A DNA stretch of 29,513 nucleotides. It comes from a virus (Duplodnaviria > Heunggongvirae > Uroviricota > Caudoviricetes). Every line of letters starts with the position of its first letter. Position 1 is the stretch's first letter. Positions 1-29,513 of the stretch are shown here, in pieces. A program made the position numbers and the translations under genes. Location of the stretch: IMG/VR virus record IMGVR_UViG_2563366805_000003. One strand, given 5' to 3'. The notes under the pieces are model-generated. The model had not been told where the DNA came from and ran no database searches. It was given only the letters and a program-made list of their open reading frames with translations.

Positions 1-103
1 CTGGCGCAGTAAACAGCAAAATCAGCAGACGTCTTCTGAACGTGAACTGGAGATGTCTACCGAGGCATTGCGGCGGACGGCCAGAAGAACGGAACGCCAA
101 TAG
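1..103 (+). mobile_element. IS3-family orfA 3' fragment; first 64 nt identical to the IS3 copy at 1741-1804, then diverged
   Basis: Positions 1-64 match 1741-1804 base for base. After a 2-nt difference the frame continues as ...STEALRRTARRTERQ and stops at TAG 101-103, versus ...[18 protein letters not shown] in the intact IS3 OrfA. No orfB follows. Confidence 0.6.
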
Positions 104-113
104 CTGGAGCACC

Positions 114-139
114 TTCTCCCAAACCAACGTTTATGAAAA
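114..139. promoter_or_regulatory. putative invertase crossover site (hix/gix-like 26-bp site)
   Basis: TTCTCCCAAACCAACGTTTATGAAAA has imperfect dyad half-sites around a central AA and matches the recalled hixL sequence at about 20 of 26 positions. It lies 55 bp upstream of the invertase start, the usual place for the invertase-proximal site. This region is also weakly similar to IS3 orfA, so the call is tentative. Confidence 0.4.
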
Positions 140-193
140 TGCAGAAATAACGAGCAAATGGCATCATTCCTGCTTTTGTCAGGGAGATCCACC

Positions 194-748
194 ATGCTTA
201 TTGGCTATGTACGCGTATCAACAAATGACCAGAACACCGATCTACAACGTAATGCGTTGAACTGTGTAGGATGTGAACTGATTTTTGAAGACAAGATAAG
301 CGGTACGAAGTCCGAAAGGCCCGGACTGAAAAAACTGCTCAGGACATTATCGGCAGGTGACACTCTGGTTGTCTGGAAGCTGGACAGGTTAGGGCGCAGT
401 ATGCGGCATCTTGTTACGCTGATAGAAGAGTTGCGCCAGCGTGGCGTGAATTTCCGAAGCCTGACTGACAGTATTGATACCAGTACCCCAATGGGCCGTT
501 TCTTTTTTCATGTCATGGGTGCCCTGGCTGAAATGGAACGAGAACTGATTGTTGAACGAACAAAAGCTGGACTGGAAGCTGCTCGCGCACAGGGACGAAT
601 TGGTGGACGTCGTCCCAAACTTACACCAGAACAATGGGCGCAGGCCGGGCGATTAATTGCATCAGGCGTTCCTCGCCAGAAGGTGGCGATCATCTATGAT
701 GTTGGTATATCGACACTGTATAAGAAGTTTCCGGTCGGAGATAAATGA
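194..748 (+). CDS. pin: serine recombinase, Hin/Gin/Pin-type DNA invertase
   Basis: MLIGYVRVSTNDQNTDLQ... with the catalytic Ser motif, GRFFFHVMGALAEMERELI, and a C-terminal HTH (GRIGGRRPKLT...STLYKK), typical of Pin/Gin/Hin. Start taken at the internal ATG at 194 rather than the ORF-track start at 158. Confidence 0.9.
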   Translation: MLIGYVRVSTNDQNTDLQRNALNCVGCELIFEDKISGTKSERPGLKKLLRTLSAGDTLVVWKLDRLGRSMRHLVTLIEELRQRGVNFRSLTDSIDTSTPMGRFFFHVMGALAEMERELIVERTKAGLEAARAQGRIGGRRPKLTPEQWAQAGRLIASGVPRQKVAIIYDVGISTLYKKFPVGDK

Positions 749-789
749 AACCGTAGCACGTCGTATGCAAGAAGATCGTGCTGCGGTTT
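731..789. repeat. imperfect direct repeat containing a stem-loop, copy A; overlaps the pin stop and may act as its terminator
   Basis: CCGTAGCACG...CGTGCTGCGG forms a 10-bp stem (one wobble pair) followed by TTTATGCTTAT. A similar copy lies at 3017-3068. Confidence 0.4.
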
Positions 790-808
790 ATGCTTATCAC
801 TTAAAGAC

Positions 809-1537
<729 letters not shown>

Positions 1538-1597
1538 TTACCCAGCAATAGTGGACACGCGGCTAAGTGAGTAAACTCTCAGTCAGAGGTGACTCAC

Positions 1598-1897
1598 ATG
1601 ACAAAAACAGTATCAACCAGTAAAAAACCCCGTAAACAGCATTCGCCTGAATTTCGCAGTGAAGCCCTGAAGCTTGCTGAACGCATCGGTGTTACTGCCG
1701 CAGCCCGTGAACTCAGCCTGTATGAATCACAGCTCTACAACTGGCGCAGTAAACAGCAAAATCAGCAGACGTCTTCTGAACGTGAACTGGAGATGTCTAC
1801 CGAGATTGCACGTCTCAAACGCCAGCTGGCAGAACGGGATGAAGAGCTGGCTATCCTCCAAAAGGCCGCGACATACTTCGCGAAGCGCCTGAAATGA
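1598..1897 (+). CDS. insE: IS3 OrfA (transposase N-terminal HTH/leucine-zipper protein)
   Basis: [40 protein letters not shown]... matches the recalled IS3 InsE sequence. The ORF-track start at 1589 is GTG; the ATG at 1598 is used here. Confidence 0.85.
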
Positions 1898-2760
1898 AGT
1901 ATGTCTTTATTGAAAAACATCAGGCTGAGTTCAGCATCAAAGCAATGTGCCGCGTGCTCCGGGTGGCCCGCAGCGGCTGGTATACGTGGTGTCAGCGGCG
2001 GACAAGGATAAGCACGCGTCAGCAGTTCCGCCAACACTGCGACAGCGTTGTCCTCGCGGCTTTTACCCGGTCAAGACAGCGTTACGGTGCCCCACGCCTG
2101 ACGGATGAACTGCGTGCTCAGGGTTACCCCTTTAACGTAAAAACCGTGGCGGCAAGCCTGCGCCGTCAGGGACTGAGGGCAAAGGCCTCCCGGAAGTTCA
2201 GCCCGGTCAGCTACCGCGCACACGGCCTGCCTGTGTCAGAAAATCTGTTGGAGCAGGATTTTTACGCCAGTGGCCCGAACCAGAAGTGGGCAGGAGACAT
2301 CACGTACTTACGTACAGATGAAGGCTGGCTGTATCTGGCAGTGGTCATTGACCTGTGGTCACGTGCCGTTATTGGCTGGTCAATGTCGCCACGCATGACG
2401 GCGCAACTGGCCTGCGATGCCCTGCAGATGGCGCTGTGGCGGCGTAAGAGGCCCCGGAACGTTATCGTTCACACGGACCGTGGAGGCCAGTACTGTTCAG
2501 CAGATTATCAGGCGCAACTGAAGCGGCATAATCTGCGTGGAAGTATGAGCGCAAAAGGTTGCTGCTACGATAATGCCTGCGTGGAAAGCTTCTTTCATTC
2601 GCTGAAAGTGGAATGTATCCATGGAGAACACTTTATCAGCCGGGAAATAATGCGGGCAACGGTGTTTAATTATATCGAATGTGATTACAATCGGTGGCGG
2701 CGGCACAGTTGGTGTGGCGGCCTCAGTCCGGAACAATTTGAAAACAAGAACCTCGCTTAG
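1894..2760 (+). CDS. insF: IS3 OrfB transposase catalytic (DDE) domain; expressed as an OrfAB fusion by -1 frameshift in IS3-family elements
   Basis: [32 protein letters not shown]... with DDE integrase-fold motifs ([27 protein letters not shown]). The ATG overlaps the orfA stop (ATGA). Confidence 0.9.
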
Positions 2761-3016
2761 GCCTGTGTCCATATTACGTGGGTAGGATCAACATACCAGC
2801 CAAGGTGTTCATTACTCCAGAAGGAAACTCAGTAATATCCATTTTGCAATATCTATGAATTATTTGTGAGACGTATATTAATGAACATTGCAAGGGCTCA
2901 CAACTAGTAGTGTTGAGAAATCCATCGGGAAAATGAGGCTAACCCTTTGAATTTACATAGCGCAAAAAGATACCTTTCCTCATAATGTGAGCTAATTTTA
3001 TGTTTCGTTTGATGAT

Positions 3017-3068
3017 CGGGTCGGTCTCGAAACCCGTAGCCACGTCATATGCAAGAACGTGCTACGAC
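3017..3068. repeat. imperfect direct repeat containing a stem-loop, copy B
   Basis: CGGGTCGGTCTCGAAACCCGTAGCCACGTCATATGCAAGAACGTGCTACGAC resembles 731-789. Stem CCGTAGCCACG / CGTGCTACG. Confidence 0.4.
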
Positions 3069-3346
3069 TGGCTGGTGAACTTCCGATAGTGCGAGTATTG
3101 AATGATTTCCAACTGTTATCGATTTTGCGTATTTTTTGCATGAGAGGATTTTTACCTCCTCCCACCGATCCTCCATGGCTTTACGCCAGTGTCTCTGGTC
3201 TGCTATGTGCCAAAAGTAGACATTGCTGACATAAAATATATGATTTGACCAACTACAACCGAAGAATAGTCCAATACATCTTGGGTCTACATCCAACTAG
3301 TTATAGAATCCCGAGTATACATGTTAGTTTTGGACATTCTAATCAC

Positions 3347-3766
3347 ATGAAATATTGCTACCTGATAATTTTAAGCTTGACTATTTCTTCTGCTCAGGCT
3401 GAGACATTTCCCGCCAAGCTAACCTGTAATACGGGTGAACAAATTACTCTTAAAGTTACTGGTCCAGAGCAGCGACTGATCTACACTTCTTCACTCTATG
3501 GAACATTCCATGGATATCTCGATGTATTTAAAGGGTTATCACCTGAGCGTCAATATGAGGTACTTGCCAATATTCATGGAATAGCTCGATATAGGGACAG
3601 CCCGTTACATTTTACTCTCCTAATGAAACGAACCAATGGTGAGATGGATAATGGCTCAATTATCTATCGATATACCTACCTGAAAGACGAGCAACTGATT
3701 GATGAAGAAGGACATTGCAGTCCGATAAAAGATGGCGGATTTATTGAGGGGAGCAAAAGTTACTAA
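3347..3766 (+). CDS. hypothetical secreted protein with N-terminal signal peptide
   Basis: MKYCYLIILSLTISSAQA-ETF is a classic Sec signal with an AQA cleavage motif. Strongly AT-rich. Start at the internal Met of ORF 3245-3766. Confidence 0.55.
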   Translation: MKYCYLIILSLTISSAQAETFPAKLTCNTGEQITLKVTGPEQRLIYTSSLYGTFHGYLDVFKGLSPERQYEVLANIHGIARYRDSPLHFTLLMKRTNGEMDNGSIIYRYTYLKDEQLIDEEGHCSPIKDGGFIEGSKSY

Positions 3767-4081
3767 GGCCAAGCGTATAGTTATCGGTATGCTTACCGTT
3801 TGCAGACCCCACGGCGCTCAGGCAGCCCGCTCCGTGCCAATAGCAGGCATTACTATGGTCTGTTCCGTAACAGTCATTTTTACCAAAGTATATGGTTAGA
3901 ACTATGCCGAAAATGCCCTCATACCATAATTAGAACTAACAATTAATTTTTTAAATTAAAATAGTTTAAAGAGTCATTTTTAATCACTTATTTATCGTGC
4001 TTATAGCTCGAAAGATACACCTTATCATCATCCCCTGTTACAATGTAGGGAGTAGGTCAATAAGATTAGAAGGAGATTTAA

Positions 4082-5548
4082 GTGAAAAAAATCAGTGACG
4101 AACAAATTAATATCGAGGCTCAATCAGGATATAGACCATGGACTATAGATTCTGGTATCGGATTGCTTCCCTTTTCAGAATTAGGTGATCGAGAATTTGA
4201 GTTGCTATGTTATTTGTTAGTAAAGAACGAAATTGAAGATGGAAAGCATAAAAATATATCCTCAATATCTTTAATGCAAGGAGTTTCTGAAAGAGGACGC
4301 GACTGCGTGCTATACCATAACGGTGTTGTAAGTGGTTTAATACAATGTAAAAAAATGCAAGGTAGAATAACTAGACCGCAAGCATTAAGAGAAATAATTA
4401 AATTTTTATTGTTTTCCATTATTGATAATAGTTTGCTTCCCGCTCCTGATTGTTTCGAATATAAGTTGTATGTATCAAATGACATCGCTGAAACTACAAA
4501 CTCACTAATTCATTCTTACTCAACCGAAGTTGAGGTGGAAATAAAGTCTGATACTATCAGTAAGTATATAAAAGATGTTGTATCTGAATACGAGTCATTC
4601 AAAATTTTTGAAAACAGCCTACCAATTAGTAAAGTTATTGATCTTTTGAGACGGATAAATGTAACCGCATCAAATGCAACAGATTTAACCTTGCGAGTTC
4701 ATAAGTATGATTCATTGTTATCATTGTTTTTTAATGTAAAAACTGTAATCGACTTAGAATCTGCAGATAAAGTTATACGTAACGCGCTTGATGACTATGG
4801 TTTAAAATACTTGACCGATGAAGACTTAAAACAACTTCAAATTCGCATTTCAAATACTAAAGAAGAAAATCGAATAAATTTAGGTTTTGTGGATTTCTTT
4901 GGTTATAACAAAGAGTTTTTTAAATCCTTGAAAGGCGAGCCATTTAAACAAGTGATAGAAGCGGTTGCGTCGGTAACATTATCATTAGATAAGTATTTAA
5001 TGGAATTCATAAATAGTAAAATCAATGAGCTAGTTTTTGAAAACGTCACAATAAAATTATTAAATCCAGGGAGGATTCACCCTTTCAGTGTGGGCGTGGT
5101 GGCACCTTACCTATTTCAGAGACTGTCCATTAAAGTCGTCTCAAGAAAGTTGCCAACAGAGTTAGTCACCAAATTTTATGAACAAGCATCTCTGTCCAAA
5201 AAGGAATTAATCGACTCGATAGCAATACAGCTCTTTGAAACAAGCGAAAGAGTTATGAAAGGAGATTTCAGTCAGTTAGTGGGAAATCCAGAAGACATAC
5301 AGTTTAAAAAGAGAATATTCACTCATATACATAATGGATTCAACAGTATAGAAGATGCAAAAACTACTTTTTCTCGAGACATCCAGATTATAATGCCAAC
5401 ATTAGATTTTATAGAAGAAAAAATAGGTGAGCTATTACAAGAAGAGCGTACTGTGGTAATAAAAGACGCCTCTTTTTTGGATAATGATGATGAGATTAAG
5501 AAAATAGCAAAAACGCTGAGTATGATCGAACCCAATCCAGGCGCATAG
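4082..5548 (+). CDS. hypothetical protein, N-terminal Mrr-like (PD-(D/E)xK) restriction-endonuclease catalytic motif plus about 380-aa C-terminal region of unknown function
   Basis: 488-aa ORF with GTG start and AGGAGA RBS 5-10 nt upstream. Residues about 70-95 read ERGRDCVLYHNGVVSGLIQCKK, matching the D...(Q/E)xK pattern of Mrr-type nucleases. Very AT-rich compared with its neighbours. Confidence 0.7.
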   Translation: MKKISDEQINIEAQSGYRPWTIDSGIGLLPFSELGDREFELLCYLLVKNEIEDGKHKNISSISLMQGVSERGRDCVLYHNGVVSGLIQCKKMQGRITRPQALREIIKFLLFSIIDNSLLPAPDCFEYKLYVSNDIAETTNSLIHSYSTEVEVEIKSDTISKYIKDVVSEYESFKIFENSLPISKVIDLLRRINVTASNATDLTLRVHKYDSLLSLFFNVKTVIDLESADKVIRNALDDYGLKYLTDEDLKQLQIRISNTKEENRINLGFVDFFGYNKEFFKSLKGEPFKQVIEAVASVTLSLDKYLMEFINSKINELVFENVTIKLLNPGRIHPFSVGVVAPYLFQRLSIKVVSRKLPTELVTKFYEQASLSKKELIDSIAIQLFETSERVMKGDFSQLVGNPEDIQFKKRIFTHIHNGFNSIEDAKTTFSRDIQIIMPTLDFIEEKIGELLQEERTVVIKDASFLDNDDEIKKIAKTLSMIEPNPGA

Positions 5549-5941
5549 AATAACTGTAGTTTTGGTATTTTTATTTTTAGTAGCTGTGTTAGTGTAATTG
5601 CACTAACACACTCCTTGAGCTGCTCCCCGTTGCTTAGGACACTTCAATGTTAGTCATGAAGTAGTGAACTTCCGCTCATCGCTCATAACAGACATAAACT
5701 TCAGTTATGGCATAAAGGTATGCATGCTGGGTGGGGAAAGTATGAAGGAAAAGAAGACTGCTGCGCCGTTTGTCGTCACGTTTATCTTCATTGGCTATGC
5801 AAGTCGTAATACAAGGTGGGACAAAACTGAGACACATAAGGCCTCGCAATGGCTTGCAAGGCTTTACATGTTTTGATGTGGTGGGACGTGTGAGCGCAGT
5901 GTTGATGGGGTAATGCTTTGAATTAGAAGTGGATTCTTATA

Positions 5942-5987
5942 ATTCGTAATGCGAAGGTCGTAGGTTCGACTCCTATTATCGGCACCA
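5942..5987 (+). tRNA. tRNA-Thr 3' fragment (46 nt, anticodon loop to CCA); att-site remnant, not an intact tRNA
   Basis: ATTCGTAATGCGAAGGTCGTAGGTTCGACTCCTATTATCGGCACCA matches the recalled 3' part of enterobacterial tRNA-Thr(CGU) (thrW type). The preceding 30 nt do not form the acceptor or D arm. Confidence 0.75.
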
Positions 5988-6004
5988 TTCAAACATCTCC
6001 CCAA

Positions 6005-6088
6005 GTCTACTAAAGTCTTTCAAAACCCCTTATAATCCGCGTATTAAAGCCCCGTTCGTCTTTTGACGTCTACTAAAGTCCCTCAAAA
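6005..6088. repeat. two direct repeats GTCTACTAAAGTC(Y)(Y)TCAAAA upstream of int; possible integrase arm-type sites
   Basis: Copies at 6005-6025 and 6068-6088, between the tRNA fragment and the int start. Confidence 0.35.
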
Positions 6089-6152
6089 TCTACGGTCAGA
6101 TGGGGGTACTTATGGGGGTATTTGCTGTTCGGTTTAGTGGAGGTACCCCCAA

Positions 6153-7367
6153 GTGAAACTCAATGCCCGTCAAATAGACACAGCCAAGCCAAAAGAGAAG
6201 GCTTACAAGCTGGCCGATGGTGGCGGTTTGTATCTCTTGGTAAAACCTAATGGAGGTAAATACTGGCGACTTAAATATCGTGTAGCTGGTAAAGAGAAGC
6301 TATTGGCACTAGGTGTGTATCCTGAGGTTACTCTAGCCGATGCTCGGGCAAAACGTGAAGATGCGAAAAGAGGTATCGCTGGTGGTATCGATCCGATGGA
6401 AGCGAAACGAGAGGAAAAGATTGCCCGGGAAACGCAGTTAAACAACACCTTCAAAGATATTGCCCTTGAGTGGCACAGCAGCAAATTAAAAAAATGGTCT
6501 GCTGGTTATGCTTCAGACATCCTCGAAGCCTTCAACAAAGATGTGTTCCCTTACATTGGCAAAAAACCAATCGCCGAAATCAAACCACTTGAACTTCTGA
6601 ATGTGCTGCGGCGCATCGAGGGGCGCGGTGCTACAGAAAAAGCCAAAAAAGTGAGGCAGCGGTGCGGGGAAGTTTTCCGCTATGCAATAGTCACTGGTCG
6701 CGCAGAGTATAACCCTGCACCAGACCTTACTAGCGCGATGCAAGGCCATGAATCTAATCATTACCCTTTCCTTACAGCCAAAGAATTACCTGATTTTTTC
6801 AAGGCATTGTCCAGTTACTCAGGAAGCGCATTGGTTGTTATGGCGGCTCGTCTACTGATTATCACCGGCTTGCGAACTGGCGAACTACGTGGCGCATTAT
6901 GGGATGAAATTGATTTCAACAAGGCTATATGGGAGATACCCGCTTCACGTATGAAAATGCGGCGGCCTCATATTGTGCCATTGTCTGAGCAGGCTCTTTC
7001 GCTTATTGGGAAGATTAGAGAAATAACAGGCAATTACCCTCTTATGTTTCCCGGGCGCAATGATCCAAGGAAAACAATGAGTGAGGCCAGCATAAACCAA
7101 GTGTTTAAGCGCATTGGCTACGCTGGACGTGTAACTGGTCATGGGTTCCGACACACTATGAGCACGATTTTGCATGAGCAGGGCTATAACACCGCGTGGA
7201 TAGAAACGCAGCTCGCTCACGTTGATAAGAACTCAATTCGTGGCACATACAACCATGCGCAATATCTGGATGGAAGGCGGGAGATGCTTCAATGGTATGC
7301 CGACTATATGGATTCTCTCGAGCATGGCGGAAATGTGGTGCATATGGTGTTTGAAAAACACGCATGA
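6153..7367 (+). CDS. int: tyrosine site-specific integrase, P4-like family
   Basis: GTG start with GGAGGT RBS. The N-terminus MKLNARQIDTAKPKEKAYKLADGGGLYLLVKPNGGKYWRLKYR is typical of P4-type integrases. C-terminal catalytic region contains HGFRHT and AHVDKN...RGTYNHAQY. Confidence 0.9.
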   Translation: MKLNARQIDTAKPKEKAYKLADGGGLYLLVKPNGGKYWRLKYRVAGKEKLLALGVYPEVTLADARAKREDAKRGIAGGIDPMEAKREEKIARETQLNNTFKDIALEWHSSKLKKWSAGYASDILEAFNKDVFPYIGKKPIAEIKPLELLNVLRRIEGRGATEKAKKVRQRCGEVFRYAIVTGRAEYNPAPDLTSAMQGHESNHYPFLTAKELPDFFKALSSYSGSALVVMAARLLIITGLRTGELRGALWDEIDFNKAIWEIPASRMKMRRPHIVPLSEQALSLIGKIREITGNYPLMFPGRNDPRKTMSEASINQVFKRIGYAGRVTGHGFRHTMSTILHEQGYNTAWIETQLAHVDKNSIRGTYNHAQYLDGRREMLQWYADYMDSLEHGGNVVHMVFEKHA

Positions 7368-7510
7368 AACAACTGGACAAGTATACAGAGGTTTACTAAA
7401 GTATAGGGGAGTAGATTGATAAAAACTCACAGAGGATTGCTATTTAACAGTTAGCCCTGGAGAAGGGCAATCGCTCTTTTACAAACGAAGGTGTATTGAG
7501 CCTTCTACGT

Positions 7511-7573
7511 CGCTGACAAAGCGGAATGTTCTTTAACAGGCTTTGGCGCTGACAAAGCGCAATTGTTCTTTAA
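7511..7573. promoter_or_regulatory. tandem direct repeats CGCTGACAAAGCG(G/C)AAT(T)GTTCTTTAA upstream of the alpA-like gene; candidate operator
   Basis: Two copies, 7511-7536 and 7547-7573. A 14-bp-stem hairpin follows at 7676-7708 (AAGACCGCAATATG ttttt CATATTGTGGTCTT). Confidence 0.35.
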
Positions 7574-7795
7574 AACTACTGGATGTCACGCCTAATAGCG
7601 TGATCCTGCCGAAATGCAGGGTAGCTCTACCCTTGTGGAGCAAACAAACCAAAACAATCTGACTATCTTTTATAAAAGACCGCAATATGTTTTTCATATT
7701 GTGGTCTTTGGCGTATTCGACATTTGACGCAAATAAAACTCTCGCCATTCGTTGCAGGAGGGGGTTATTGCGTCATTAGTACAGGATATTAATAA

Positions 7796-7999
7796 ATGGC
7801 TAATTACAATTCATTAATTCGTCTCTCTGAAGTTCAAAGGCGAACTGGTTATAGCAAAGCATGGATTTATCGTCTTATTAGTCAGGGGAGGTTCCCTAAA
7901 CAGGTAAAAATTGGAAGTCGGGCAATTGCTTTTGTTGAGTCTGAAATAGATGAATGGATTGAGAAGTGTATATTAGAATCTAGAGACGAGGTGGCCTGA
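7796..7999 (+). CDS. alpA: AlpA-family (prophage CP4-57 regulatory / Vis-like) DNA-binding protein
   Basis: 67 aa. LSEVQRRTGYSKAWIYRLISQGRFPKQVKIGSRAIAFVESEIDEWI is the characteristic AlpA HTH signature. Sits directly downstream of int. Confidence 0.75.
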   Translation: MANYNSLIRLSEVQRRTGYSKAWIYRLISQGRFPKQVKIGSRAIAFVESEIDEWIEKCILESRDEVA

Positions 8000-8430
8000 T
8001 GGAAAAGAAAAACCGCCCATTACAGGCGGCTAATTCAGATATTCGTGTATCTGATGTTACGCCCCTTACAAAATCCCCTCAAGCACCAAAGCGCACACCG
8101 AAAAAGCATCGTGCCAGAGTCTATATGCTGCGTACTGGTATAGAGGGATGGACAGAAAATGACATTCTTCGCTACTGCCGTCTGTCTTCTGGTCGTAACT
8201 ATGCAACAGAGTTAGAACGCCAGCTTGGAATCACTCTGGAGCGTATCGACGAAAAGAATCCTGATGGTATCGGAACACACCTTCGCTACCGTTTCTCCTG
8301 CCGTGGTGATGTTCTGAAAGTGATCACTCATATTAACCATCTTGCGAACATAAATGATCACAACGGACTTTCTCAGCAGGAAATTGCCGACATTCTGAAA
8401 CTCTACCCGGACGCGTTTAACGCCGCCTAA
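7999..8430 (+). CDS. hypothetical protein
   Basis: 143-aa ORF whose ATG overlaps the alpA stop (translational coupling). Confidence 0.55.
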   Translation: MEKKNRPLQAANSDIRVSDVTPLTKSPQAPKRTPKKHRARVYMLRTGIEGWTENDILRYCRLSSGRNYATELERQLGITLERIDEKNPDGIGTHLRYRFSCRGDVLKVITHINHLANINDHNGLSQQEIADILKLYPDAFNAA

Positions 8431-8442
8431 CGGAGACTGAAA

Positions 8443-9276
8443 ATGAACATCGAAAAAAGCAGATTAATTTCTGAGGCCGCCCCTCATCTGAACGCCTCTC
8501 TGGGCACAATTAACGGTAATGAATTTGCCGCAATTGTCCCGGTTATTCCTGGTCATATCGGTGGGCGTGAAACCAATATTGTTAGCGCAAAAGCGTTACA
8601 CAAAGCGTTGGGCGTGGGAAAAGACTTCTCTACATGGATCACTGATCGCATCTCTGAATATGACTTCACCATTGGGCACGATTACTCAGTCCATAAAACA
8701 ATTTCCCCAAATTTGGGGAAAAGCCCGAATGGCGCGGCTTACAGCAAGATAAAGCACTCTGGCAGACCCGGCAAAGACTATCTGTTAAGTGTCGGAATGG
8801 CGAAAGAACTGGCAATGATCGAACGCAATGATCAGGGTCGCGCTATCCGCCGTTATTTCATCCAGTGCGAGGAAGAATTACAGCGTAGCGTGCCTGAAAT
8901 CGCCGCCCGCTATCGTCGCCAGCTAAAAGCCCGTATTAGTGCCGCAAACAACTTTAAGCCAATGTGCGATGCGCTGAATATGGCCCGTGCCGAGATGGGG
9001 AAAACGACGCAGCAACACCACTACACAAACGAGAGCAATATGATTTCTCGTATCGTTCTTGGTGGGCTAACTGCTAAGCAGTGGGCGCGGATAAATGGCT
9101 ATTCTGGCGAACCTCGCGACCATATGAACGCAGAACAGCTTGAGCACCTCTCATATCTCGAAAGCACCAATATCACGTTAATTGATATGGGCATGGAATA
9201 TGAGCAGCGCAAAGGAGAACTCACCCGCCTGTCGCAACGCTGGCTCGCCAAGCGTCTGGAGGCGCTCAATGTCTAA
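8443..9276 (+). CDS. phage antirepressor-like protein (AntA/AntB-type N-terminal domain)
   Basis: 277 aa. N-terminal NIVSAKALHKALGVGKDFSTWITDRISEYDFTIGHDY and central DYLLSVGMAKELAMIERNDQGRAIRRYFIQCEE resemble AntA-type domains, from recalled motifs only. Confidence 0.5.
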   Translation: MNIEKSRLISEAAPHLNASLGTINGNEFAAIVPVIPGHIGGRETNIVSAKALHKALGVGKDFSTWITDRISEYDFTIGHDYSVHKTISPNLGKSPNGAAYSKIKHSGRPGKDYLLSVGMAKELAMIERNDQGRAIRRYFIQCEEELQRSVPEIAARYRRQLKARISAANNFKPMCDALNMARAEMGKTTQQHHYTNESNMISRIVLGGLTAKQWARINGYSGEPRDHMNAEQLEHLSYLESTNITLIDMGMEYEQRKGELTRLSQRWLAKRLEALNV

Positions 9277-9448
9277 GCCAACAGGAATACCACAACCACA
9301 AAAACGCTACAAAGATGCCCACGGAGCACTCGTTACTGTCGAAAGCGTGTCTCACAACCGAGTGACGTTTTATCGCGACGGGTATCAATCGCCATGCGTA
9401 CAACCGCTGGCGCGTTTCATGAAGGAGTTCGCGGAGGTTAACCAATGA
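9269..9448 (+). CDS. hypothetical small protein
   Basis: [59 protein letters not shown]. Start overlaps the stop of the preceding gene. Confidence 0.45.
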   Translation: MSKPTGIPQPQKRYKDAHGALVTVESVSHNRVTFYRDGYQSPCVQPLARFMKEFAEVNQ

Positions 9449-10182
9449 TACCCGTCCAGAAGAAGACATTTTCACTGGCTGGTATGTCGCCAAAATCCAG
9501 CAATATGACGGCAAAGTCAGGCATTAATACAGCAGATACAAGCAAAGTTTATCATTTGCTGGTGGTCGGAACGGATGCCTTAACCATACCAGAAATCTCG
9601 GGCGATGATATTAGCATTGAGAAGGTCAGCGGCTGCGCCAGAGAATTTCTGGTCGTAGATGATGTCTTCCGCTCGTGTAGTGACTCCACAAAAACATTCG
9701 TCCACGCGCGTGACGTTAACGAAATGAGCGCGATGTACTGTGCATCTGGTGCTTCCAATAGCGAGTTTTCGGAGTCCATAAAAAAGAGCTTGCCGTTATG
9801 CGGCAACACGGTTTATGGTTATAAGGCACCTCATAAAACGGGTGCCGGGATTGGCGTCCTGAAAATTCTGAAGGCGACATATGACGCGCCGAGCGTCTTT
9901 TTTTATGTCGTAGGTCTGACTCACCCATTTTTTGGGCGTTGGTGTATAATCCAGCGCCTTTGTCAATCAATGGTGGCTCAGGCGGGGGCTTCTTCGGAAG
10001 CGCCGGTATCCTTCAGAGCCGGTTACGCCAACCCTGTCTGGGCTACCACCAGCGAAATTGGCGTTTCCGGTGGTAGCGTAACCTGCTATCTGAAGGAGGC
10101 TGCCACATGCTGGCTACTACCCCTACCCAAAAACCGCAATTTATCTGGATTATCGCCGCAGTTCGCCGCGATTGCCCGATAA
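9445..10182 (+). CDS. hypothetical protein; 3' extent uncertain
   Basis: ATGA start-stop overlap with the previous gene supports a real 5' end. The last third overlaps a promoter-like TATAAT (9946-9951) and hairpins, and overlaps the next ORF by 75 nt, so it may be non-coding leader. Confidence 0.35.
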
Positions 10183-10301
10183 TTACCGCCAAAATTCATC
10201 ATATTGCTGCCGAGTCTGAACGCGATGCTCGCCGTTCTCTGGTGCGCGATCACGTCTGCTTTTTTGCTGGTCGTATCCGCATGGAGGTGGCACATGATTA
10301 A
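10107..10301 (+). CDS. hypothetical small protein
   Basis: Strong RBS AAGGAGG 12 nt upstream; 64 aa. Confidence 0.5.
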   Translation: MLATTPTQKPQFIWIIAAVRRDCPIITAKIHHIAAESERDARRSLVRDHVCFFAGRIRMEVAHD

Positions 10302-10512
10302 AACCTACGATGTGCATATGGATCCCCTCGAACGCACAAGCCAGATCATCACACTGACAGAAGTGATTAATGACATTCTGGTGAGCAACTCTCCCTCACG
10401 AGACGAAAAACTGAAGGCGTTACTCGCGATATTGGATCTCGCCGTTCGTGACGTTCATTTCCTGCTGGAAGGTGGACAAATGCCATGCAAAACGGGGGCA
10501 ACCAATGAATAA
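10288..10512 (+). CDS. hypothetical small protein
   Basis: Internal ATG of ORF 10204-10512 preceded by GGAGGTG; overlaps the previous stop. Confidence 0.5.
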   Translation, partial: WHMIKTYDVHMDPLERTSQIITLTEVINDILVSNSPSRDEKLKALLAILDLAVRDVHFLLEGGQMPCKTGATNE

Positions 10513-10699
10513 CTCAATTAATACCCCTCGCCTTACGTCCGCACTTCAATTAATCGAGCAAGCAGCGGCTGTCCTGCTTGCTGTCAGTCTTTCGGCTGAA
10601 GAGATGGACGCTGCTGATGTCGTGGATGCGATTAAAGCGTGCTCATCTTTGGTTAACGATGCCCGTGCAGAGCTGGTAATTCTTGGGGGTGAAAAATGA
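10505..10699 (+). CDS. hypothetical small protein
   Basis: MNNSINTPRLTSALQLIEQAAAV...; start overlaps the previous gene's end. Confidence 0.45.
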   Translation: MNNSINTPRLTSALQLIEQAAAVLLAVSLSAEEMDAADVVDAIKACSSLVNDARAELVILGGEK

Positions 10700-10959
10700 A
10701 TATCAACTTAATTTATCGTCATCCGTGTGAGCTGGAAATTGAATCATTGCTGGGGCGCGAAGAGCCATATCCAGACACATTCACTCCCGCAGATTGCGCG
10801 ACTGAACGGCTTACCAGAGCGCGCACAGGTCTGGTTCATGTGATGAATGAGATTATTCCCTCGGTGGGAGGGGAACAGGCGACAGTAATCAATAGCTGGC
10901 TACAAAAAGTCACCTCCCTGATAGATATCAGTTTAATCGATGTGGAGAGTGCGAAATGA
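10696..10959 (+). CDS. hypothetical protein
   Basis: 87 aa; ATGA overlap with flanking genes. Confidence 0.5.
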   Translation: MNINLIYRHPCELEIESLLGREEPYPDTFTPADCATERLTRARTGLVHVMNEIIPSVGGEQATVINSWLQKVTSLIDISLIDVESAK

Positions 10960-11177
10960 CCAACATCCAGCTCATTGAAGCGCAATGTCGCATCGAACAG
11001 GTTCAGACTGTTTTAGGGTTCTGGCTTGAAGGGGCCAGCCCAAGCAACAGAGACAAGTTAATGATTGGCGCGGTTATGTCACTGCTCAATGGCGTACCAG
11101 AAGCTATTCAGGAAGCAGACGAATTGTTGGGCAAATATGAGTTACAGAATCATTCAGGCGAGGCGAAACATGAATAA
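10956..11177 (+). CDS. hypothetical protein
   Basis: 73 aa; ATGA overlap with flanking genes. Confidence 0.5.
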   Translation: MTNIQLIEAQCRIEQVQTVLGFWLEGASPSNRDKLMIGAVMSLLNGVPEAIQEADELLGKYELQNHSGEAKHE

Positions 11178-11772
11178 TTTCTTAACTTTCCATGCAGAAG
11201 CAACGCCTGACGGCGTAAACATCATGCACCGCAGCAACGATGGCATGACAGAACGCGTTGAGACCGTCTCATATATTGATGCCGTAAATCGTCTGGATGC
11301 CGGGGATTATGACGATAAACCAGATGAAGGTATGTCAATACATCTCGCTATAGCCGATGGCGGCAACCAGGGATATTTCGATTACACATCACAGCATAAC
11401 GTCATTATGTGGAGATGGCTGATCGCAACAGTATTCATGCTGGAAATGAGAGAGGAAAACGGCACTGTCAGCATCATTGATGATACTGGCAATCCTTCCG
11501 AAGTGGCTGTTTATTCCAACGGCATCGTTGCCATGCCGCTGTATCCAGTAGCAGAGCGCCTCGCTATGGCAAACAACATTGAGGGAGCGATGATAGAACG
11601 TTTTGGCATCGAGTCTGGCACAGAACGCTCCATCATTTTCTACAGAGCCATGATGGATGTGGAACAAGGAGCACTGACTCCATTTGGTCGTGAAACGCTT
11701 GCTGAACTTCACAACAGCTTTATAGCTGAACTGAATGAAAACGGCATGCCATCGGAACCAGTGACGCACTGA
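11170..11772 (+). CDS. hypothetical protein
   Basis: Internal ATG (MNNFLTFHAEATPDG...) preceded by GAGG; 200 aa. Confidence 0.5.
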   Translation: MNNFLTFHAEATPDGVNIMHRSNDGMTERVETVSYIDAVNRLDAGDYDDKPDEGMSIHLAIADGGNQGYFDYTSQHNVIMWRWLIATVFMLEMREENGTVSIIDDTGNPSEVAVYSNGIVAMPLYPVAERLAMANNIEGAMIERFGIESGTERSIIFYRAMMDVEQGALTPFGRETLAELHNSFIAELNENGMPSEPVTH

Positions 11773-11782
11773 GGATGGAACC

Positions 11783-12124
11783 ATGATTACTAAAAATTTC
11801 CGACTGAATGCGCTGGCAAATAAGTATGCGTCGGCACTGTATAACCACATTACCTCCACCAGCGGAGGGGACTATTTCATGGTTGATGCGGACGGCGAGG
11901 CCGTACGTGTGGAAATCGTCAATGGAGTAAAAGGCGTTCGCAGCCTGATCGATAGCTACACACTGGCAGCCATGAAAGTGTTCTACCCGCAGTGGGAAAC
12001 CGTGGGGATCGAGCTTATTGAGCGTTGCGTCACTAAGGACGGATTGACTGACGTCGGGCGTGAGATATGGCAAAGCATGGTTAATGACATGGGCGCAACT
12101 GTAGCGGGAGGTTCTCATGCGTGA
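11783..12124 (+). CDS. hypothetical protein
   Basis: 113-aa ORF preceded by GAGGATGG. Confidence 0.5.
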   Translation: MITKNFRLNALANKYASALYNHITSTSGGDYFMVDADGEAVRVEIVNGVKGVRSLIDSYTLAAMKVFYPQWETVGIELIERCVTKDGLTDVGREIWQSMVNDMGATVAGGSHA

Positions 12125-12488
12125 AAATGCAGAAATGGCGCTTAGCTCCGCAATCGGAGAGCAGGTGGCAAAGATTGCTGGTGCTGTGTGGATTCATAAC
12201 CTTCATTCTACTGGTGAAGAGAAAATGGCAATTCAGACGCCAGAGGGACGCACCATTACTACATCTCTGAAGCCGTCAGATGTTTGTGATCTGATTTGCG
12301 CATTCATGTACCCAGCAATGAGGACTGTCCACGGCGATAAGTGGAAACTTGCGACAACCGCTGAATTTGATATGTGGCTAAACAATGATGGCATGCTGAC
12401 TGATTACGGAATAACCAAGTGGCAGATGCTGGTTAGCCATATCGCAAACGCTATAGACCACGTGGGGTACGGTGATGCGAAACATTGA
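12117..12488 (+). CDS. hypothetical protein
   Basis: 123-aa ORF overlapping the previous and next genes. Confidence 0.5.
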   Translation: MRENAEMALSSAIGEQVAKIAGAVWIHNLHSTGEEKMAIQTPEGRTITTSLKPSDVCDLICAFMYPAMRTVHGDKWKLATTAEFDMWLNNDGMLTDYGITKWQMLVSHIANAIDHVGYGDAKH

Positions 12489-15231
12489 TCTTATCCGTCA
12501 GGTTATCAGTGCGTCTGAAAACAACTGGCCTCATGTGCTGGGCTGCCTGAACATAAATGTCCCTGACTCTCCGCGCCGTCATGCTCCCTGCCCTGCATGT
12601 GGGGGCAAAGATCGATTCCGGTTCGATGACAACGGGCGCGGTAGCTTCATCTGTAATCAGTGCGGCGCTGGTGATGGGCTGGATTTAATTAAACGCGTAA
12701 ATAACTGCGACACAACAGAGGCGGCGCTTCTTGCCGCTGATGTTCTGGGTATTGATTACCGGACAACGGAAACACCAGAAGCCACCAGCCAGAAACGGGA
12801 ACAACTGGAAACCGAGCGCCAGCGACGCGAACAGGAGCGCCTGAAAAGGGCAGAGAAGGACGAACAACAAAGACGGGATACGTTTTCCCGTCAGTTTGAT
12901 GACATGCGCAGAAAGGCTGTAAACGGCAAATCTGATTATCTGGTTGCGAAAGGGGTAGGTGATTTTACATTCCCCGTGTTGCCCGATGGATCTCTGTTGC
13001 TGGCGCTGGTGGATAAATCCGGCGCAGTAACAGCAGCACAGACTATTACCTCACATGGTGAAAAAAGACTCCTGACAGGTTCAGCAAAGCGAGGGGCATA
13101 TCACGCCATAAACGCACCAGAAACAACACAGAGCATCTTAATCGCAGAAGGGCTGGCAACGGCATTATCTGCCCATTTAATGCGTCCAGAGGCGCTGACA
13201 GTGGCGGCGATTGATGCCGGGAACCTGTTATATGTCGCCCAGGTACTGCGGGATAAATTTCCTTCAGCACAAATCATCATTGCTGCGGATAACGACCACA
13301 GCGAAGGAAGACAAAACACGGGGAGAATAGCAGCAGAAAAAGCAGCTTTATCTGTTTCTGGATGGGTGGCATTACCCCCGACAGATCACAAAGCAGACTG
13401 GAATGATTACCACCAAAAACACGGCATTAAATGCGCCACAGAAGCGTTCAATAAGTCAATGTACCAACCACAGGGTAATGGCGTGAAACAGGAGCCACAG
13501 ACCATTGAGGGAAGCGATTTTAAGGTTATGGATACCGATCCACTGAAACCAAGAATAGAAAGCCGCGAGGATGGTATTTATTGGGTATCTCCGAGAGCTG
13601 ACAGCCAGAGTGGAGAAATCATCAATAACGAAAGCTGGTTATGTTCTCCGTTAAGCGTTATCGGTACTGGCAGAGACGATAAAGACCAGTATCTCATTCT
13701 TCGCTGGCTGTCGTTTGGTTCTGAAACGCCGACAACCGCTGCCATTCCACTGGCTGATATTGGTGAACGTGAAGGATGGCGCACACTTAAAGCTGGTGGG
13801 GTAAATGTCACGACCAAAAGCAGCCTCAGAGCAATACTGGCAGACTGGCTACAACGCAGTGGCTCTCGTGAATTGTGGCGTGTTGCTCATGCCACTGGCT
13901 GGCAATGCGGAGCGTACATCATGCCTGATGGGGAAATCATCGGAACACCTGAAAATCCTGTGCTGTTCAGCGGGAGAAGCTCAGCCGCAGCCGGATATAC
14001 CGTCTCAGGGAGCGCGAAAAGCTGGCGTGATAACGTGGCGCGTCTGGCCTTTGGTAACTATTCAATGATGACCGGGATCGGCGCAGCACTGGCAGCGCCA
14101 TTGATTGGGCTGGTGGGCGCTGACGGGTTCGGCATTCATTTCTATGAGCAGTCGAGCGCAGGTAAGACCACCACGGCAAACGTGGCGAGCAGCTTATACG
14201 GCAACCCTGATTTACTGCGGCTGACGTGGTACGGAACCGCGCTGGGGCTGGCAAATGAGGCCGCCGCCCACAATGACGGACTAATGCCGCTTGATGAAGT
14301 TGGTCAGGGCGCTGATCCTGTCAGCGTTTCACAGTCTGCCTATGCGTTATTTAACGGTGTAGGGAAACTGCAAGGCGCTAAAGATGGTGGAAACCGGGAT
14401 CTAAAACGCTGGCGTACAGTGGCAATCAGCACCGGAGAAATGGATTTAGAAACATTTATCGCTACTTCCGGGCGAAAAACCAAAGCCGGGCAACTGGTGC
14501 GACTGCTGAATATTCCGTTGAGTAAAGCAGTACGCTTTCACGATTACCAGAACGGAAAACAGCACGCAGACGCACTGAAAGACGCTTACCAGCATCACCA
14601 CGGCGCGTCCGGGCGTGAGTGGATTAAATGGCTGGCAGACCACCAGCAACAGGCTATTAAAACCGTTCGTGATTGCGAAAGCAGATGGAGAAGCCTGATC
14701 CCATCCGATTATGGTGAGCAGGTTCACCGTGTAGCCGCGCGATTTGCCATTCTGGAGGCCGCATTGTTGTTAGGCGAGGTTGTAACAGGCTGGGATGCTC
14801 AGACATGCCGTGATGCGATACAGCACAGCTATAACGCATGGTTGCGCGAGTTCGGCACAGGTAACAAAGAGCATCAGCAGATTATTGAACAAACGGAGGC
14901 ATTTCTTAATGCCTATGGGCTTAGCCGTTTTGCACCATTTCCATACAGCCCGGCAGATTTGCCCATCAAAGATTTAGCCGGATACCGTCAGCGTGGAGAA
15001 CATGACGAAAGCCCAATGATTTTCTACACATTCCCGGCCACATTTGAAAAGGAGATCGCATGTGGTTTCAACGCAAAACAGTTTGCTGAAGTGTTGAAAA
15101 AAGCCGGGATGCTAACCCCACCAAACAGCGGTCGTGGATACCAAAGAAAATCACCACGTATTCAGGGACGACAAATAAACGTTTATGTACTCAATTACCA
15201 GCCAGGAGATTATAACTCATCTGAAGAATGA
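12472..15231 (+). CDS. primase-helicase (phage P4 alpha-like): zinc-binding primase N-terminus plus P-loop NTPase/helicase C-terminus
   Basis: 919 aa. Zinc finger CPACGGKDRFRFDD...FICNQCGAGDGLDLI is typical of P4 alpha / PICI Pri-Rep primases. Walker A-like GIHFYEQSSAGKTT further on. Iterons follow the stop immediately. Confidence 0.85.
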   Translation: MMRNIDLIRQVISASENNWPHVLGCLNINVPDSPRRHAPCPACGGKDRFRFDDNGRGSFICNQCGAGDGLDLIKRVNNCDTTEAALLAADVLGIDYRTTETPEATSQKREQLETERQRREQERLKRAEKDEQQRRDTFSRQFDDMRRKAVNGKSDYLVAKGVGDFTFPVLPDGSLLLALVDKSGAVTAAQTITSHGEKRLLTGSAKRGAYHAINAPETTQSILIAEGLATALSAHLMRPEALTVAAIDAGNLLYVAQVLRDKFPSAQIIIAADNDHSEGRQNTGRIAAEKAALSVSGWVALPPTDHKADWNDYHQKHGIKCATEAFNKSMYQPQGNGVKQEPQTIEGSDFKVMDTDPLKPRIESREDGIYWVSPRADSQSGEIINNESWLCSPLSVIGTGRDDKDQYLILRWLSFGSETPTTAAIPLADIGEREGWRTLKAGGVNVTTKSSLRAILADWLQRSGSRELWRVAHATGWQCGAYIMPDGEIIGTPENPVLFSGRSSAAAGYTVSGSAKSWRDNVARLAFGNYSMMTGIGAALAAPLIGLVGADGFGIHFYEQSSAGKTTTANVASSLYGNPDLLRLTWYGTALGLANEAAAHNDGLMPLDEVGQGADPVSVSQSAYALFNGVGKLQGAKDGGNRDLKRWRTVAISTGEMDLETFIATSGRKTKAGQLVRLLNIPLSKAVRFHDYQNGKQHADALKDAYQHHHGASGREWIKWLADHQQQAIKTVRDCESRWRSLIPSDYGEQVHRVAARFAILEAALLLGEVVTGWDAQTCRDAIQHSYNAWLREFGTGNKEHQQIIEQTEAFLNAYGLSRFAPFPYSPADLPIKDLAGYRQRGEHDESPMIFYTFPATFEKEIACGFNAKQFAEVLKKAGMLTPPNSGRGYQRKSPRIQGRQINVYVLNYQPGDYNSSEE

Positions 15232-15256
15232 GCTTCTTCATGTGCGTAGAAAAGGT

Positions 15257-15367
15257 GTTGGTTCAGTTGGTTCAGTTGGTTCAATTTGTAAAGAGTATTG
15301 TTTTATAAGGATTTTATTCTTTTTATTGAACCAACACTGAACCAACAACACGGTATTTTGAACCAAC
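15257..15367. repeat. iteron cluster (putative replication origin): 3 tandem GTTGGTTCA (10-bp period), AT-rich spacer, 3 inverted TGAACCAAC
   Basis: GTTGGTTCA at 15257, 15267 and 15277. TGAACCAAC at 15327, 15338 and 15359. Spacer is ATTTGTAAAGAGTATTGTTTTATAAGGATTTTATTCTTTTTAT. Starts 26 bp after the primase stop. Confidence 0.7.
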
Positions 15368-15815
15368 ACAATGTGACTGAATTGATGCGCACAACACCTG
15401 GCTGGCATCAGAGAGTGTTTTACGAGACTTTCGTAAAATCCTGTGTACAAGGGCGTGACGTTTTTGAAAGTGAGCACTACGAAATTTTCGTAGTTCAAAA
15501 AACAGCCTCTGAGAAGTTGTTATGCCTGTTCAGCAAACCATCCGCATAGCTGATCGCGAATCAAATTACCAATGGAGCCAGAAGCAAGGGCAGAACTGAA
15601 AAGCGCCTGCCGTGAAGAGTAATGCGACACCATAAATATAGTTTTTAGAGTCCATAAAAAACCTGTCAAAACCTGACACACAGAACGATGCCACCAGCTA
15701 CTGAGCGGTGGCATTTTTTTGTGCTATTTGTTTCATATTTTGCAATTATGATGATGAATATTGCGATTTGTGAAACTATAATAACTGTTGTTTTATACAG
15801 TTCTAAGGGGGCGTT

Positions 15816-15993: not shown

Positions 15994-16455
15994 ATGGAAC
16001 TAAAATTTATTGATAACCCTGTGCGATTACAGGCCTTTCTTAACGAGCCAGGCAATACCGAAAATATTGTTGAGCCGGGGCACACGTACTACATCAAGCC
16101 TGATGCGGTATATCTCGGCATCTACGAAGGATTAGTGCTGGCTGGCGTTCATGAAGTGCGTAACTTCTGGCATAGCGTTGTTGAATGCCATGCGGTGTAC
16201 GACCCCGGATTCCGTGGTGAATATGCACTGCAAGGACATCGATTATTCTGCAAATGGCTTCTCGAAAACTCACCATTCCTTAACAGCATCACTATGGTTC
16301 CTGACACCACGAAATACGGACGGGCAATTATCCGTTTGCTTGGCGCTACCCGTGTTGGTCACCTTGATGATGCTTATATCAGATGTGGTAAACCCGTCGG
16401 CGTAACGCTTTATCAGTTAACTCGGCAACAATATAAGGAATTCAGCGAATGTTAA
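15994..16455 (+). CDS. hypothetical phage-like protein; first gene of the putative ejection-protein cassette
   Basis: 153-aa ORF overlapping the start of the next gene. Confidence 0.5.
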   Translation: MELKFIDNPVRLQAFLNEPGNTENIVEPGHTYYIKPDAVYLGIYEGLVLAGVHEVRNFWHSVVECHAVYDPGFRGEYALQGHRLFCKWLLENSPFLNSITMVPDTTKYGRAIIRLLGATRVGHLDDAYIRCGKPVGVTLYQLTRQQYKEFSEC

Positions 16456-17126
16456 TTACCCATATAGCTCATAAACATCTCAATCGTGCCGTATACGAAA
16501 AAGGCGGTGATGGTGGTGCCTCTAAAGCTCAGGCGAAGGCCCAGCAGCAGGCAATTGATTTGCAGCGCGAGCAGTGGAATACTGTGATGAATAATCTCAA
16601 GCCGTATGCAGAAGTCGGATTGCCTGCTTTACAACAACTGCAAGGACTGATGACTCTGGAAGGGCAGAATAAAGCCGCGAATGATTTCTTTGGTTCTGGT
16701 TTATATAAAACACAGGCAGATCAGGCCCGTTATCAGAACCTTGTCTCAGCAGAAGCTACCGGGGGGCTTGGCTCAACAGCTACCAGTAACCAGTTATCTT
16801 CCATTGCGCCCATGCTTTATAACAATTGGCTTAGTGGGCAAATGCAAAATTATGGAAACCTGCTAAATGTCGGGATGAATGCGGCATCAGGGCAGGCAAC
16901 AGCAGGGCAAAACTACGCCAATAATACCGGGCAACTCTTGCAGGGGCTTGGCGCTATTCGTGCAGGTCAGGCGCAGCAGCCATCCAGTCTTGCGCGTGGT
17001 ATTGGTGGGGCGGCATCAGGCGCTTTAGCGGGTGCGCAACTTGGTTCCGTTGTTCCGGGTATAGGTAATGTCGCCGGGGCTATTGGTGGTGGGCTTATTG
17101 GTCTTGTTGGGGGGCTTGGATTCTAA
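16449..17126 (+). CDS. putative DNA-ejection / internal virion protein, small (gp7-like by size and position), Gly-rich hydrophobic C-terminus
   Basis: 225 aa. C-terminus GAASGALAGAQLGSVVPGIGNVAGAIGGGLIGLVGGLGF is a glycine-zipper-like segment. Stop overlaps the next ATG. Confidence 0.45.
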   Translation: MLITHIAHKHLNRAVYEKGGDGGASKAQAKAQQQAIDLQREQWNTVMNNLKPYAEVGLPALQQLQGLMTLEGQNKAANDFFGSGLYKTQADQARYQNLVSAEATGGLGSTATSNQLSSIAPMLYNNWLSGQMQNYGNLLNVGMNAASGQATAGQNYANNTGQLLQGLGAIRAGQAQQPSSLARGIGGAASGALAGAQLGSVVPGIGNVAGAIGGGLIGLVGGLGF

Positions 17127-24407: not shown

Positions 24408-24748
24408 CCTAACCTGGTGACGGTGGTTCGCATATCCTGATGGATGATCAGTGATTAATCAATGCGCCAAGCAGATGTGTCTATGTGTTTGTTAATCATT
24501 GCATGACAGTAGATCGACATGGGAGATCACGTTATATAGTTGAATTGTTAGGATATCCATGCACCGATCAACTGACTAGGCTGATGTGCTTTTTAGCAGG
24601 TGCCATATAGTAGTTAGGCGGTTCTGTGAAATGATTACTGTTCCAGCATAACTGCGGCATAAAGCGGTGCTATATAAGCTATTTGCTGGCGGATTTAGTC
24701 TTCACCGTTAATATATGTAGTGACTATTTGACAGAGTGTTAGTTCACG

Positions 24749-24848
24749 GACACTTTTTGTTGGTTCAAAATGAGTTGATGTTGGTTCAATATTTTAGAAA
24801 AAACACAATAAAAACAACGCTCTTTACAAATTGAACCAACTGAACCAA
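24749..24848. repeat. second iteron cluster, inverted relative to 15257-15367: 2 GTTGGTTCA, AT-rich spacer, 3 tandem TGAACCAAC
   Basis: GTTGGTTCA at 24749 and 24770. TGAACCAAC at 24822, 24831 and 24840. The reverse complement of 24808-24862 is near-identical to 15246-15300. Confidence 0.7.
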
Positions 24849-24894
24849 CTGAACCAACACCTTTTTGCTTATCTATATAATCTGAGAGGCAGAA

Positions 24895-27272: not shown

Positions 27273-27952
<680 letters not shown>

Positions 27953-27970
27953 TACAGTTCTCCACTATTG

Positions 27971-28192: not shown

Positions 28193-28200
28193 GTAATACC

Positions 28201-28677: not shown

Positions 28678-28692
28678 CTGTTGCTCCTTCGG

Positions 28693-29151: not shown

Positions 29152-29248
29152 GGGTATGTCTCCGTCAATAAAAACGCCAGCGGCGATGGCTGGCGTATGG
29201 GGATATAAAGTGTGTTCGGGGAGGTGAATGCGGGTAAATGCTTCGCGA

Positions 29249-29488: not shown

Positions 29489-29513
29489 TTTCGGGCTCCT
29501 GATAAAAGAAAAC

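Follow-up and report, generated by a model that had tools for sequence, protein, structure and literature searches.

Why does only the 3′ end of a tRNA-Thr gene lie directly in front of a P4-type integrase gene in this DNA, and what does so short a fragment separate? The window, by which we mean the whole stretch of 29,513 nt that was analysed, carries at 5942–5987 on the plus strand the sequence ATTCGTAATGCGAAGGTCGTAGGTTCGACTCCTATTATCGGCACCA, which agrees with the last 46 nt of E. coli K-12 thrW (tRNA-Thr CGU) at 46 of 46 positions. The match ends there: base 5941 is A, vs. C in thrW, which gives the fragment a length of exactly 46 nt. Searched for as a 46-mer, it has a single hit in the window and is present in 0 of 100 shuffles. 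A first-pass annotation of this DNA had described just such a piece, 46 nt from a tRNA-Thr 3′ end that finishes in CCA and has no 5′ half, with a P4-type integrase starting about 166 bp to the right. Both descriptions are borne out: the thrW match is complete and the 5′ half is absent, and the open reading frame with P4-type domains (6153–7367) opens with a GTG 165 nt past the CCA. The same annotation had staked its reading on the absence of an intact tRNA-Thr gene here, and none is present. ARAGORN found no tRNA in the window, the Rfam tRNA model scores the fragment at 14 bits vs. a gathering score of 29 and covers the T-arm and the 3′ acceptor strand only, and the 30-nt 5′ half of thrW was not found in the whole 29,513-nt window with 3 mismatches allowed. 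A complete tRNA-Thr cloverleaf with acceptor, D, anticodon and T arms cannot be drawn from the fragment. Judged by its sequence, the fragment is not a tRNA gene, and its sole role would be that of a recombination site.

5942–5987, plus strand: last 46 nt of thrW; predicted SfV/SfIV-type attR core, which contains the predicted P4-type attL core

We consider it highly probable that several elements have integrated in tandem at thrW and that the fragment is a hybrid attachment site within this array. More specifically, it reads as attR for the integrase of a phage whose DNA lies to the left and as attL for the P4-type integrase to the right. The case for this depends on what is found on the two sides of the fragment, and the left side carries the following features.

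1–64, no strand assigned: internal piece of IS3, identical to 1741–1804, joined at base 65 to prophage tail-fibre DNA
158–748, plus strand: Pin-type serine invertase (Pfam Resolvase and HTH_7; pinE in the annotation of strains D2 and E8)
809–1522, minus strand: LEM-3-like GIY-YIG protein, prophage cargo (padloc PD-T4-3 anti-phage defence model, E=1.4e-127; Pfam)
1533–2790, plus strand: complete IS3 of 1258 bp with a 3-bp target duplication, ACA; without a counterpart in D2
2791–5665, plus strand: variable cargo slot at the prophage right end (here with ORFs 3245–3766 and 4082–5548)
5666–5941, plus strand: left (P) arm of an SfV/SfIV-type attP, the prophage side of attR (alignment with SfIV, SfII, SfI and phi458)

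The stretch 5817–5993 of the window matches the SfIV, SfII and SfI attP regions at 96–97% identity, and 5667–5993 is 90% identical to phage phi458; in the SfII record, attP is annotated within the matched stretch, between gtrA and int. The attP of SfIV has been described as a 46-bp sequence that is identical in SfI and SfV, is present at both prophage ends and directs integration at thrW (PMC3851460). The window, SfIV, SfII and K-12 thrW have the same 46-nt core, and the flanking arm 5817–5941, about 125 bp long, is homologous to the phage attP arm at the identity given above. These matches identify the DNA on the left as part of a temperate prophage of the Shigella SfV/SfIV/SfII type, of which it forms the right end (attR), and the window starts inside this prophage. 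The earlier description of the left-hand DNA as unrelated accessory sequence therefore holds only in part, as the attP arm, the Pin invertase gene, the PD-T4-3 gene and the cargo slot together read as one prophage end. The 46 nt together with 5666–5941 would constitute the phage attR. It differs from the attR of SfV, SfIV, SfI and SfII in what lies beyond the core, which is another mobile element instead of the chromosome. The fragment is 46 nt long because its length is set by the core of the SfV/SfIV-type phage and not by the P4-type integrase, whose own core measures only about 17–19 nt.

On the right side, the P4-type element spans 5988–26875 (20.9 kb), and its two ends carry matching sets of features.

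5971–5989, plus strand: core common to both element ends, the last 17 nt of thrW plus TT (comparison with 26876–26893)
5988–6152, plus strand: P′ arm of the P4-type att site and upstream region of the integrase gene (geometry as in the annotated arm repeats of P4 attP)
6005–6025 and 6068–6088, within the P′ arm: direct repeats GTCTACTAAAGTC..TCAAAA
6101–6108 and 6113–6120: TGGGGGTA arm repeats, with an inverted copy at 6144–6151 abutting the start codon
6153–7367, plus strand: P4-type tyrosine integrase, 404 aa, GTG start (Pfam; similarity to P4 Int)
26794–26813, plus strand: P arm of the P4-type att site, with TGGGGGTA arm-type repeats, two in tandem
26876–26891, plus strand: degenerate thrW tail TCCTATTATCG-CACCA, P4-type attR core (last 17 nt of thrW minus one G)

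The integrase contains the domains Arm-DNA-bind_3 (PF13356), Phage_int_M (PF22022) and Phage_integrase (PF00589), aligns with P4 Int over its full length at 42% identity (E=3e-116), and has a counterpart annotated by RefSeq in strain D2. Six copies of TGGGGGTA are present vs. 0.5 expected by chance, and the degenerate tail begins 60 bases past the right-hand pair. A core from a tRNA 3′ end is hence accompanied on both sides by putative arm-type direct repeats, which is the arrangement of a P4-type att site. In P4 itself (NC_001609), the 20-nt core is a tRNA 3′ end with CCA, and two tandem TGGGGGCA stand on each side of it, with an inverted copy over the int start. The att/int region of P4, which integrates at leuX, resembles that of the window in the three Int domains and in a core at the extreme tRNA 3′ end including CCA, and its TGGGGG(C/T)A repeats, two in tandem on each side and one inverted over the int start, are spaced similarly to those of the window. 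The last 17 nt of the fragment, the TT and 5988–6152 would form the P4-type attL, in which the integrase would bind the TGGGGGTA arm repeats. Between the core and these repeats lies a further pair, GTCTACTAAAGTC[T/C][T/C]TCAAAA, its members 63 bp apart; at the corresponding place in P4 there is a related “gaaagtccaaat”-like stretch.

The tail at 26876–26891 is a second, shorter thrW end that the first-pass annotation had missed. It was found by alignment to K-12; mismatch-only searches with the 46-, 25- and 17-mer are blind to its 1-nt deletion. This tail alters the reading of the locus as a junction of two islands: that islands have accreted here stands, while their number becomes three, with the tail separating the P4-type element from the left end of CP4-6.

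26892–29513, minus strand: left end of the cryptic prophage CP4-6 (ykfI, yafW, ykfH, ykfG, yafX, ykfF)
27273–27677, minus strand: ykfI (CbtA_toxin, E=3.9e-68)
27635–27952: yafW
28201–28677: ykfG

From the last 17 nt of thrW through ykfF, the window (26876–29513) is 99.7% identical to K-12. The ykfI/yafW module directly adjoins thrW in K-12, and the order of genes is the same here; the statement in the first-pass annotation, that a CP4-type toxin module follows the element and sits next to thrW in K-12, was correct. In K-12, CP4-6 is bounded by thrW and by a second copy of the thrW end beside intF. Here, on the other hand, it is removed by about 21 kb of P4-type element from the nearest long thrW copy, the prophage adds a further distance, and only its first 2.6 kb lie in the window. 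At the far end of CP4-6 in K-12, at 5207–5255 of the K-12 locus (L008), the copy beside intF is identical over 46 nt (49 nt are annotated, with a preceding CGC) and is followed by TTAAAATCAAAGAGTTACCCC. The same TTAAAATCAAAGAGTTACCCC follows the P4-type element in D2 and E8, both of which are without CP4-6, and it is therefore the native downstream flank of thrW. If the P4-type element were absent from the present array, the junction would read phage arm, 46 nt, and then TTAAAATCAAATTG of CP4-6.

The single G missing from the core at the right end of the P4-type element deserves separate consideration. One explanation, a private mutation that disables excision, was rejected, as the single-G core is common to all five of the five genomes checked and is found in three contexts: it is followed by the native thrW flank in D2 and E8, by CP4-6 in the window and A29, and by a remnant of an SfV-type integrase gene in KP63. 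Its presence in five genomes with three downstream contexts argues that the single-G version is probably native to the attP of the element, which in turn would place the crossover in the last ~7 nt of the core. Strand exchange would then occur to the right of the missing G, within approximately CACCATT, so that thrW, once regenerated, would retain its GG, and the single-G copy of the element would stay at the right end.

Taken together, these features suggest the order proA, intact thrW, SfV/SfIV-type prophage, 46-nt core, P4-type element, 16-nt degenerate tail and CP4-6. Each element would have entered by tyrosine-integrase recombination between the thrW gene and an attP with its own copy of the thrW 3′ end, and each integration would regenerate an intact tRNA gene at one end and leave a partial copy at the other. 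According to the Islander rule, the regenerated tDNA and the displaced fragments delimit islands, tandem arrays included (PMC4383910). Here the fragments that belong to the members are the 46 nt at 5942–5987 and the 16-nt tail at 26876–26891, both on the plus strand. Of the integrase genes, that of the P4-type element is full-length in the window; those of the phage and of CP4-6 (intF) would lie outside it, and they are present in D2 and K-12, respectively. We find no essential difference from the tandem arrays of Islander and TIGER, whose members each come with an integrase and with a tDNA fragment oriented like the gene (PMC4383910). In the Islander survey, arrays with at least three members were rare, with 4 cases among 3919 islands (PMC4383910), and thrW is a recognised integration hotspot (PMC7545054).

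Comparison with other genomes supports the serial integration at one tRNA gene that the first-pass annotation had proposed, and each of the intermediate states exists in a complete genome. Among the complete E. coli genomes, coverage of the first 25 kb of the window reaches 84% at most, and the source genome is not in this set. Strain D2 is 99.1–99.9% identical to the window from 64 to 13803, IS3 aside. Its order is proB, proA, intact thrW, int, a 41-kb prophage, pinE, the GIY-YIG gene, cargo, the 46-nt fragment and the P4-type int. The phage int of D2 is convergent with the tRNA gene, and there are exactly two copies of the core, one in thrW and one at the junction. D2 and K-12 thus served as proxies for the mapping of core copies that the first-pass annotation had suggested for the full genome. 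The D2 prophage also relates the left-hand DNA to the SfV-type phages, as it has an Int 99.7% identical to that of SfIV and the same layout of an HK97-type head and a Mu-type tail. From the order in D2, an intact thrW and a phage int would be expected upstream of the window in the source genome.

In KP63 and A29, which lack the phage at this place, proA is followed by an intact thrW and this directly by the P4-type int; aligning such strains, which lack one of the islands, had been suggested as a check on the serial-integration reading. Their match to the window begins exactly at 5942, as it does in many genomes. In a five-way alignment, SfIV attP consists of the left flank of the window, the 46 nt and an arm X, and D2 thrW is an intact gene followed by the same arm X. 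The window, in turn, consists of the SfIV left arm, the 46 nt and a sequence Y, while KP63 and A29 have an intact thrW followed by Y. This is the pattern of an attP × attB product, in which an SfV-type attP would have recombined with a thrW already followed by the P4-type element. In KP63 the P4-type element at thrW has its right-end core followed by the SfV-type integrase remnant (L003 26886–27080), so that the two types of element stand in the reverse order to that of the window.

Among 5426 complete E. coli genomes, the tandem junction, counted when at least 80% of 5666–6152 was present, was found in 135, an intact thrW directly before the P4-type arm in 712, and an intact thrW directly before an SfV-type int in 1481. 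The window itself is a mosaic, D2-like up to 13803 and A29-like from 22113.

Did the junction form in this strain? It may instead have formed once or a few times elsewhere and have come here by descent or by homologous recombination of the proA–thrW region. We regard this as a serious possibility, if a little less probable than its opposite. The identity of 99.1–99.9% with D2 extends over 13.7 kb across the junction, and the D2-like/A29-like mosaic suggests recombination within the region. An imported junction is nevertheless compatible with a site-specific origin, which it would merely place earlier in time, and the occurrence of the right end of the P4-type element beside three different downstream contexts argues for repeated integration.

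The second question concerns the order of arrival. We infer that CP4-6 came first, then the P4-type element and then the phage, each into the regenerated intact gene; this order fits the gradient of decay, as CP4-6 is cryptic and the D2 prophage looks complete. The structure itself does not reveal the order, as every copy of the core has the same sequence. For the same reason, one part of the earlier interpretation must be modified: the fragment does separate an upstream island from a downstream element, but it is not distinguishable as the “displaced original” 3′ end. The same array could have arisen in reverse, with the SfV-type phage arriving first and the P4-type element entering the 46-nt attR copy. 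The P4-type core needs just ~17–19 nt, all of which are contained in that copy, the final structure would be identical, and the opposite physical order in KP63 implies that the order of arrival at thrW is not fixed. Integration into a copy without the chromosomal B arm is, however, usually disfavoured, the P4-type element is found directly at an intact thrW in the 712 genomes mentioned above, and the complete-looking D2 prophage appears younger. None of these points is decisive, and we consider the reversed arrival unlikely, though not negligibly so.

Before the relation between the two elements can be discussed, the content of the P4-type element has to be described, and the following features were found in its interior.

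7796–7999, plus strand: AlpA-family regulator, probable excisionase (Pfam Phage_AlpA, E=7e-20)
9826–10053, plus strand: isrK-like and C4 antisense RNAs, immunity RNAs of the P1/P4 type (Rfam, 67.8 and 79.9 bits, both above the gathering score)
12472–15231, plus strand: primase-helicase with Zn ribbon, Toprim and DUF927 (N-terminal 360 aa 33% identical to P4 alpha)
15250–15304, plus strand: iteron block of GTTGGTTCA repeats, left arm of a 55-nt inverted repeat
15994–21162, plus strand: P22-type ejection-protein genes, namely DUF2824, gp7, gp20 and an SLT-domain gene in the gp16 position (Pfam), inside the P4-type element
24811–24865, minus strand: right arm of the 55-nt inverted iteron repeat, 96% complementary

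The integrase, AlpA and alpha-type primase genes are thus combined in one element, which also encodes AntA- and Ash-family proteins. The isrK-like and C4 RNAs are consistent with an immunity system of the P1/P4 RNA type in the element; both matches, at 9826–9903 and 9966–10053, sit within the annotation of the Ash-family gene. An AlpA/Vis-type regulator, a C4/CI-type RNA, an alpha-like primase and iterons just past the primase are all shared with P4. On the other hand, P4 targets leuX and is 11.6 kb long, in contrast to thrW and 20.9 kb here, and the element of the window differs further in the DUF927 helicase part, the P22-type ejection-protein genes and the right-end core that lacks one G. 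A P4-like satellite would combine int, alpA, alpha and epsilon with sid, delta and psu, the genes for capsid size and the hijacking of a helper. For none of the ORFs from int to the right end did Pfam or PHROG give a match to Psu, Sid or Delta, and RefSeq calls the homologues hypothetical. As no homologue of sid, delta or psu was found, we call it a P4-type integrase/primase element and not a P4-like satellite.

The part from 15.2 to 26.9 kb has almost no DNA match to sequenced phages. We considered that it might be a separate remnant of a P22-like prophage and rejected this, as it contains no arm or core of the SfV/P22 type and the P4-type arm repeats lie to its right. The segment is treated here as putative cargo of the P4-type element. 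A literature search found nothing specific on satellites that carry ejection proteins. In A29 and D2 another set of ejection-protein genes takes the place of this module. The GTTGGTTCA iteron regions, at 15250–15375 and 24731–24865, bracket a segment of 9.5 kb.

Could the P4-type element be a satellite of the thrW-integrating phages with P22/SfV-type integrases, so that the array would be more than a passive pile-up? If this were true, the att fragment shared with the helper prophage would allow co-amplification or co-excision of the element. The genome counts do not favour such a partnership, which we regard as very doubtful: there is no enrichment of the association, as the element follows 135 of 1481 SfV-type prophages at thrW (9.1%) and is present at 712 of 3945 thrW genes without an SfV-type prophage (18.0%), both being raw counts that ignore kinship. 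The alternative named in the first-pass annotation was that a rearrangement truncated the tRNA gene. In this case a deletion, inversion or IS-mediated event would have cut an intact tRNA-Thr gene, and the adjoining integrase would be a coincidence. This is extremely improbable, for although IS3 copies nearby (1–64 and 1533–2790) indicate that the region does rearrange, the breakpoint coincides exactly with the limit of the 46-bp attP core published for SfV/SfIV (PMC3851460), the DNA to its left matches the phage attP arm at 96–97% identity, 135 genomes have the same junction, and the nearest IS end is 3.1 kb away.

The fragment serves as a reliable boundary marker: it delimits three mobile elements in the window and implies that thrW has been used at least three times in this strain. 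For annotation, this means that the fragment should not be recorded as a tRNA pseudogene that arose by damage, and that the prophage and the P4-type element can both be delimited, at these ends, to the exact base. Nothing new is added to the biology of integration, as the 46-bp core of the SfV/P22 type, the att anatomy of P4, the thrW hotspot and tandem arrays are all documented already.

The prophage end itself offers some further observations. In SfV-type phages, the O-antigen module (gtrA, gtrB and gtr) is located by attP. In the window, the corresponding prophage end carries instead the PD-T4-3 GIY-YIG gene and strain-variable genes. The two ORFs in the cargo slot, 3245–3766 (173 aa) and 4082–5548 (488 aa), gave no usable match in padloc, Pfam, NCBIfam or PHROGs; in other strains the same slot is occupied by AAA ATPase, SIR2, DUF262 or AraC genes. 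The prophage end beside attP looks like a defence hotspot. It also appears to be decaying, with IS3 sequences at two places, and what remained of the prophage may have been lost. The abrupt joint between the IS3 piece at 1–64 and tail-fibre DNA may point to an IS3-mediated deletion that removed some of the prophage. An ORF that runs across this joint, at base 64, has no record in the contig collection. The complete IS3 sits between the GIY-YIG gene and the cargo slot.
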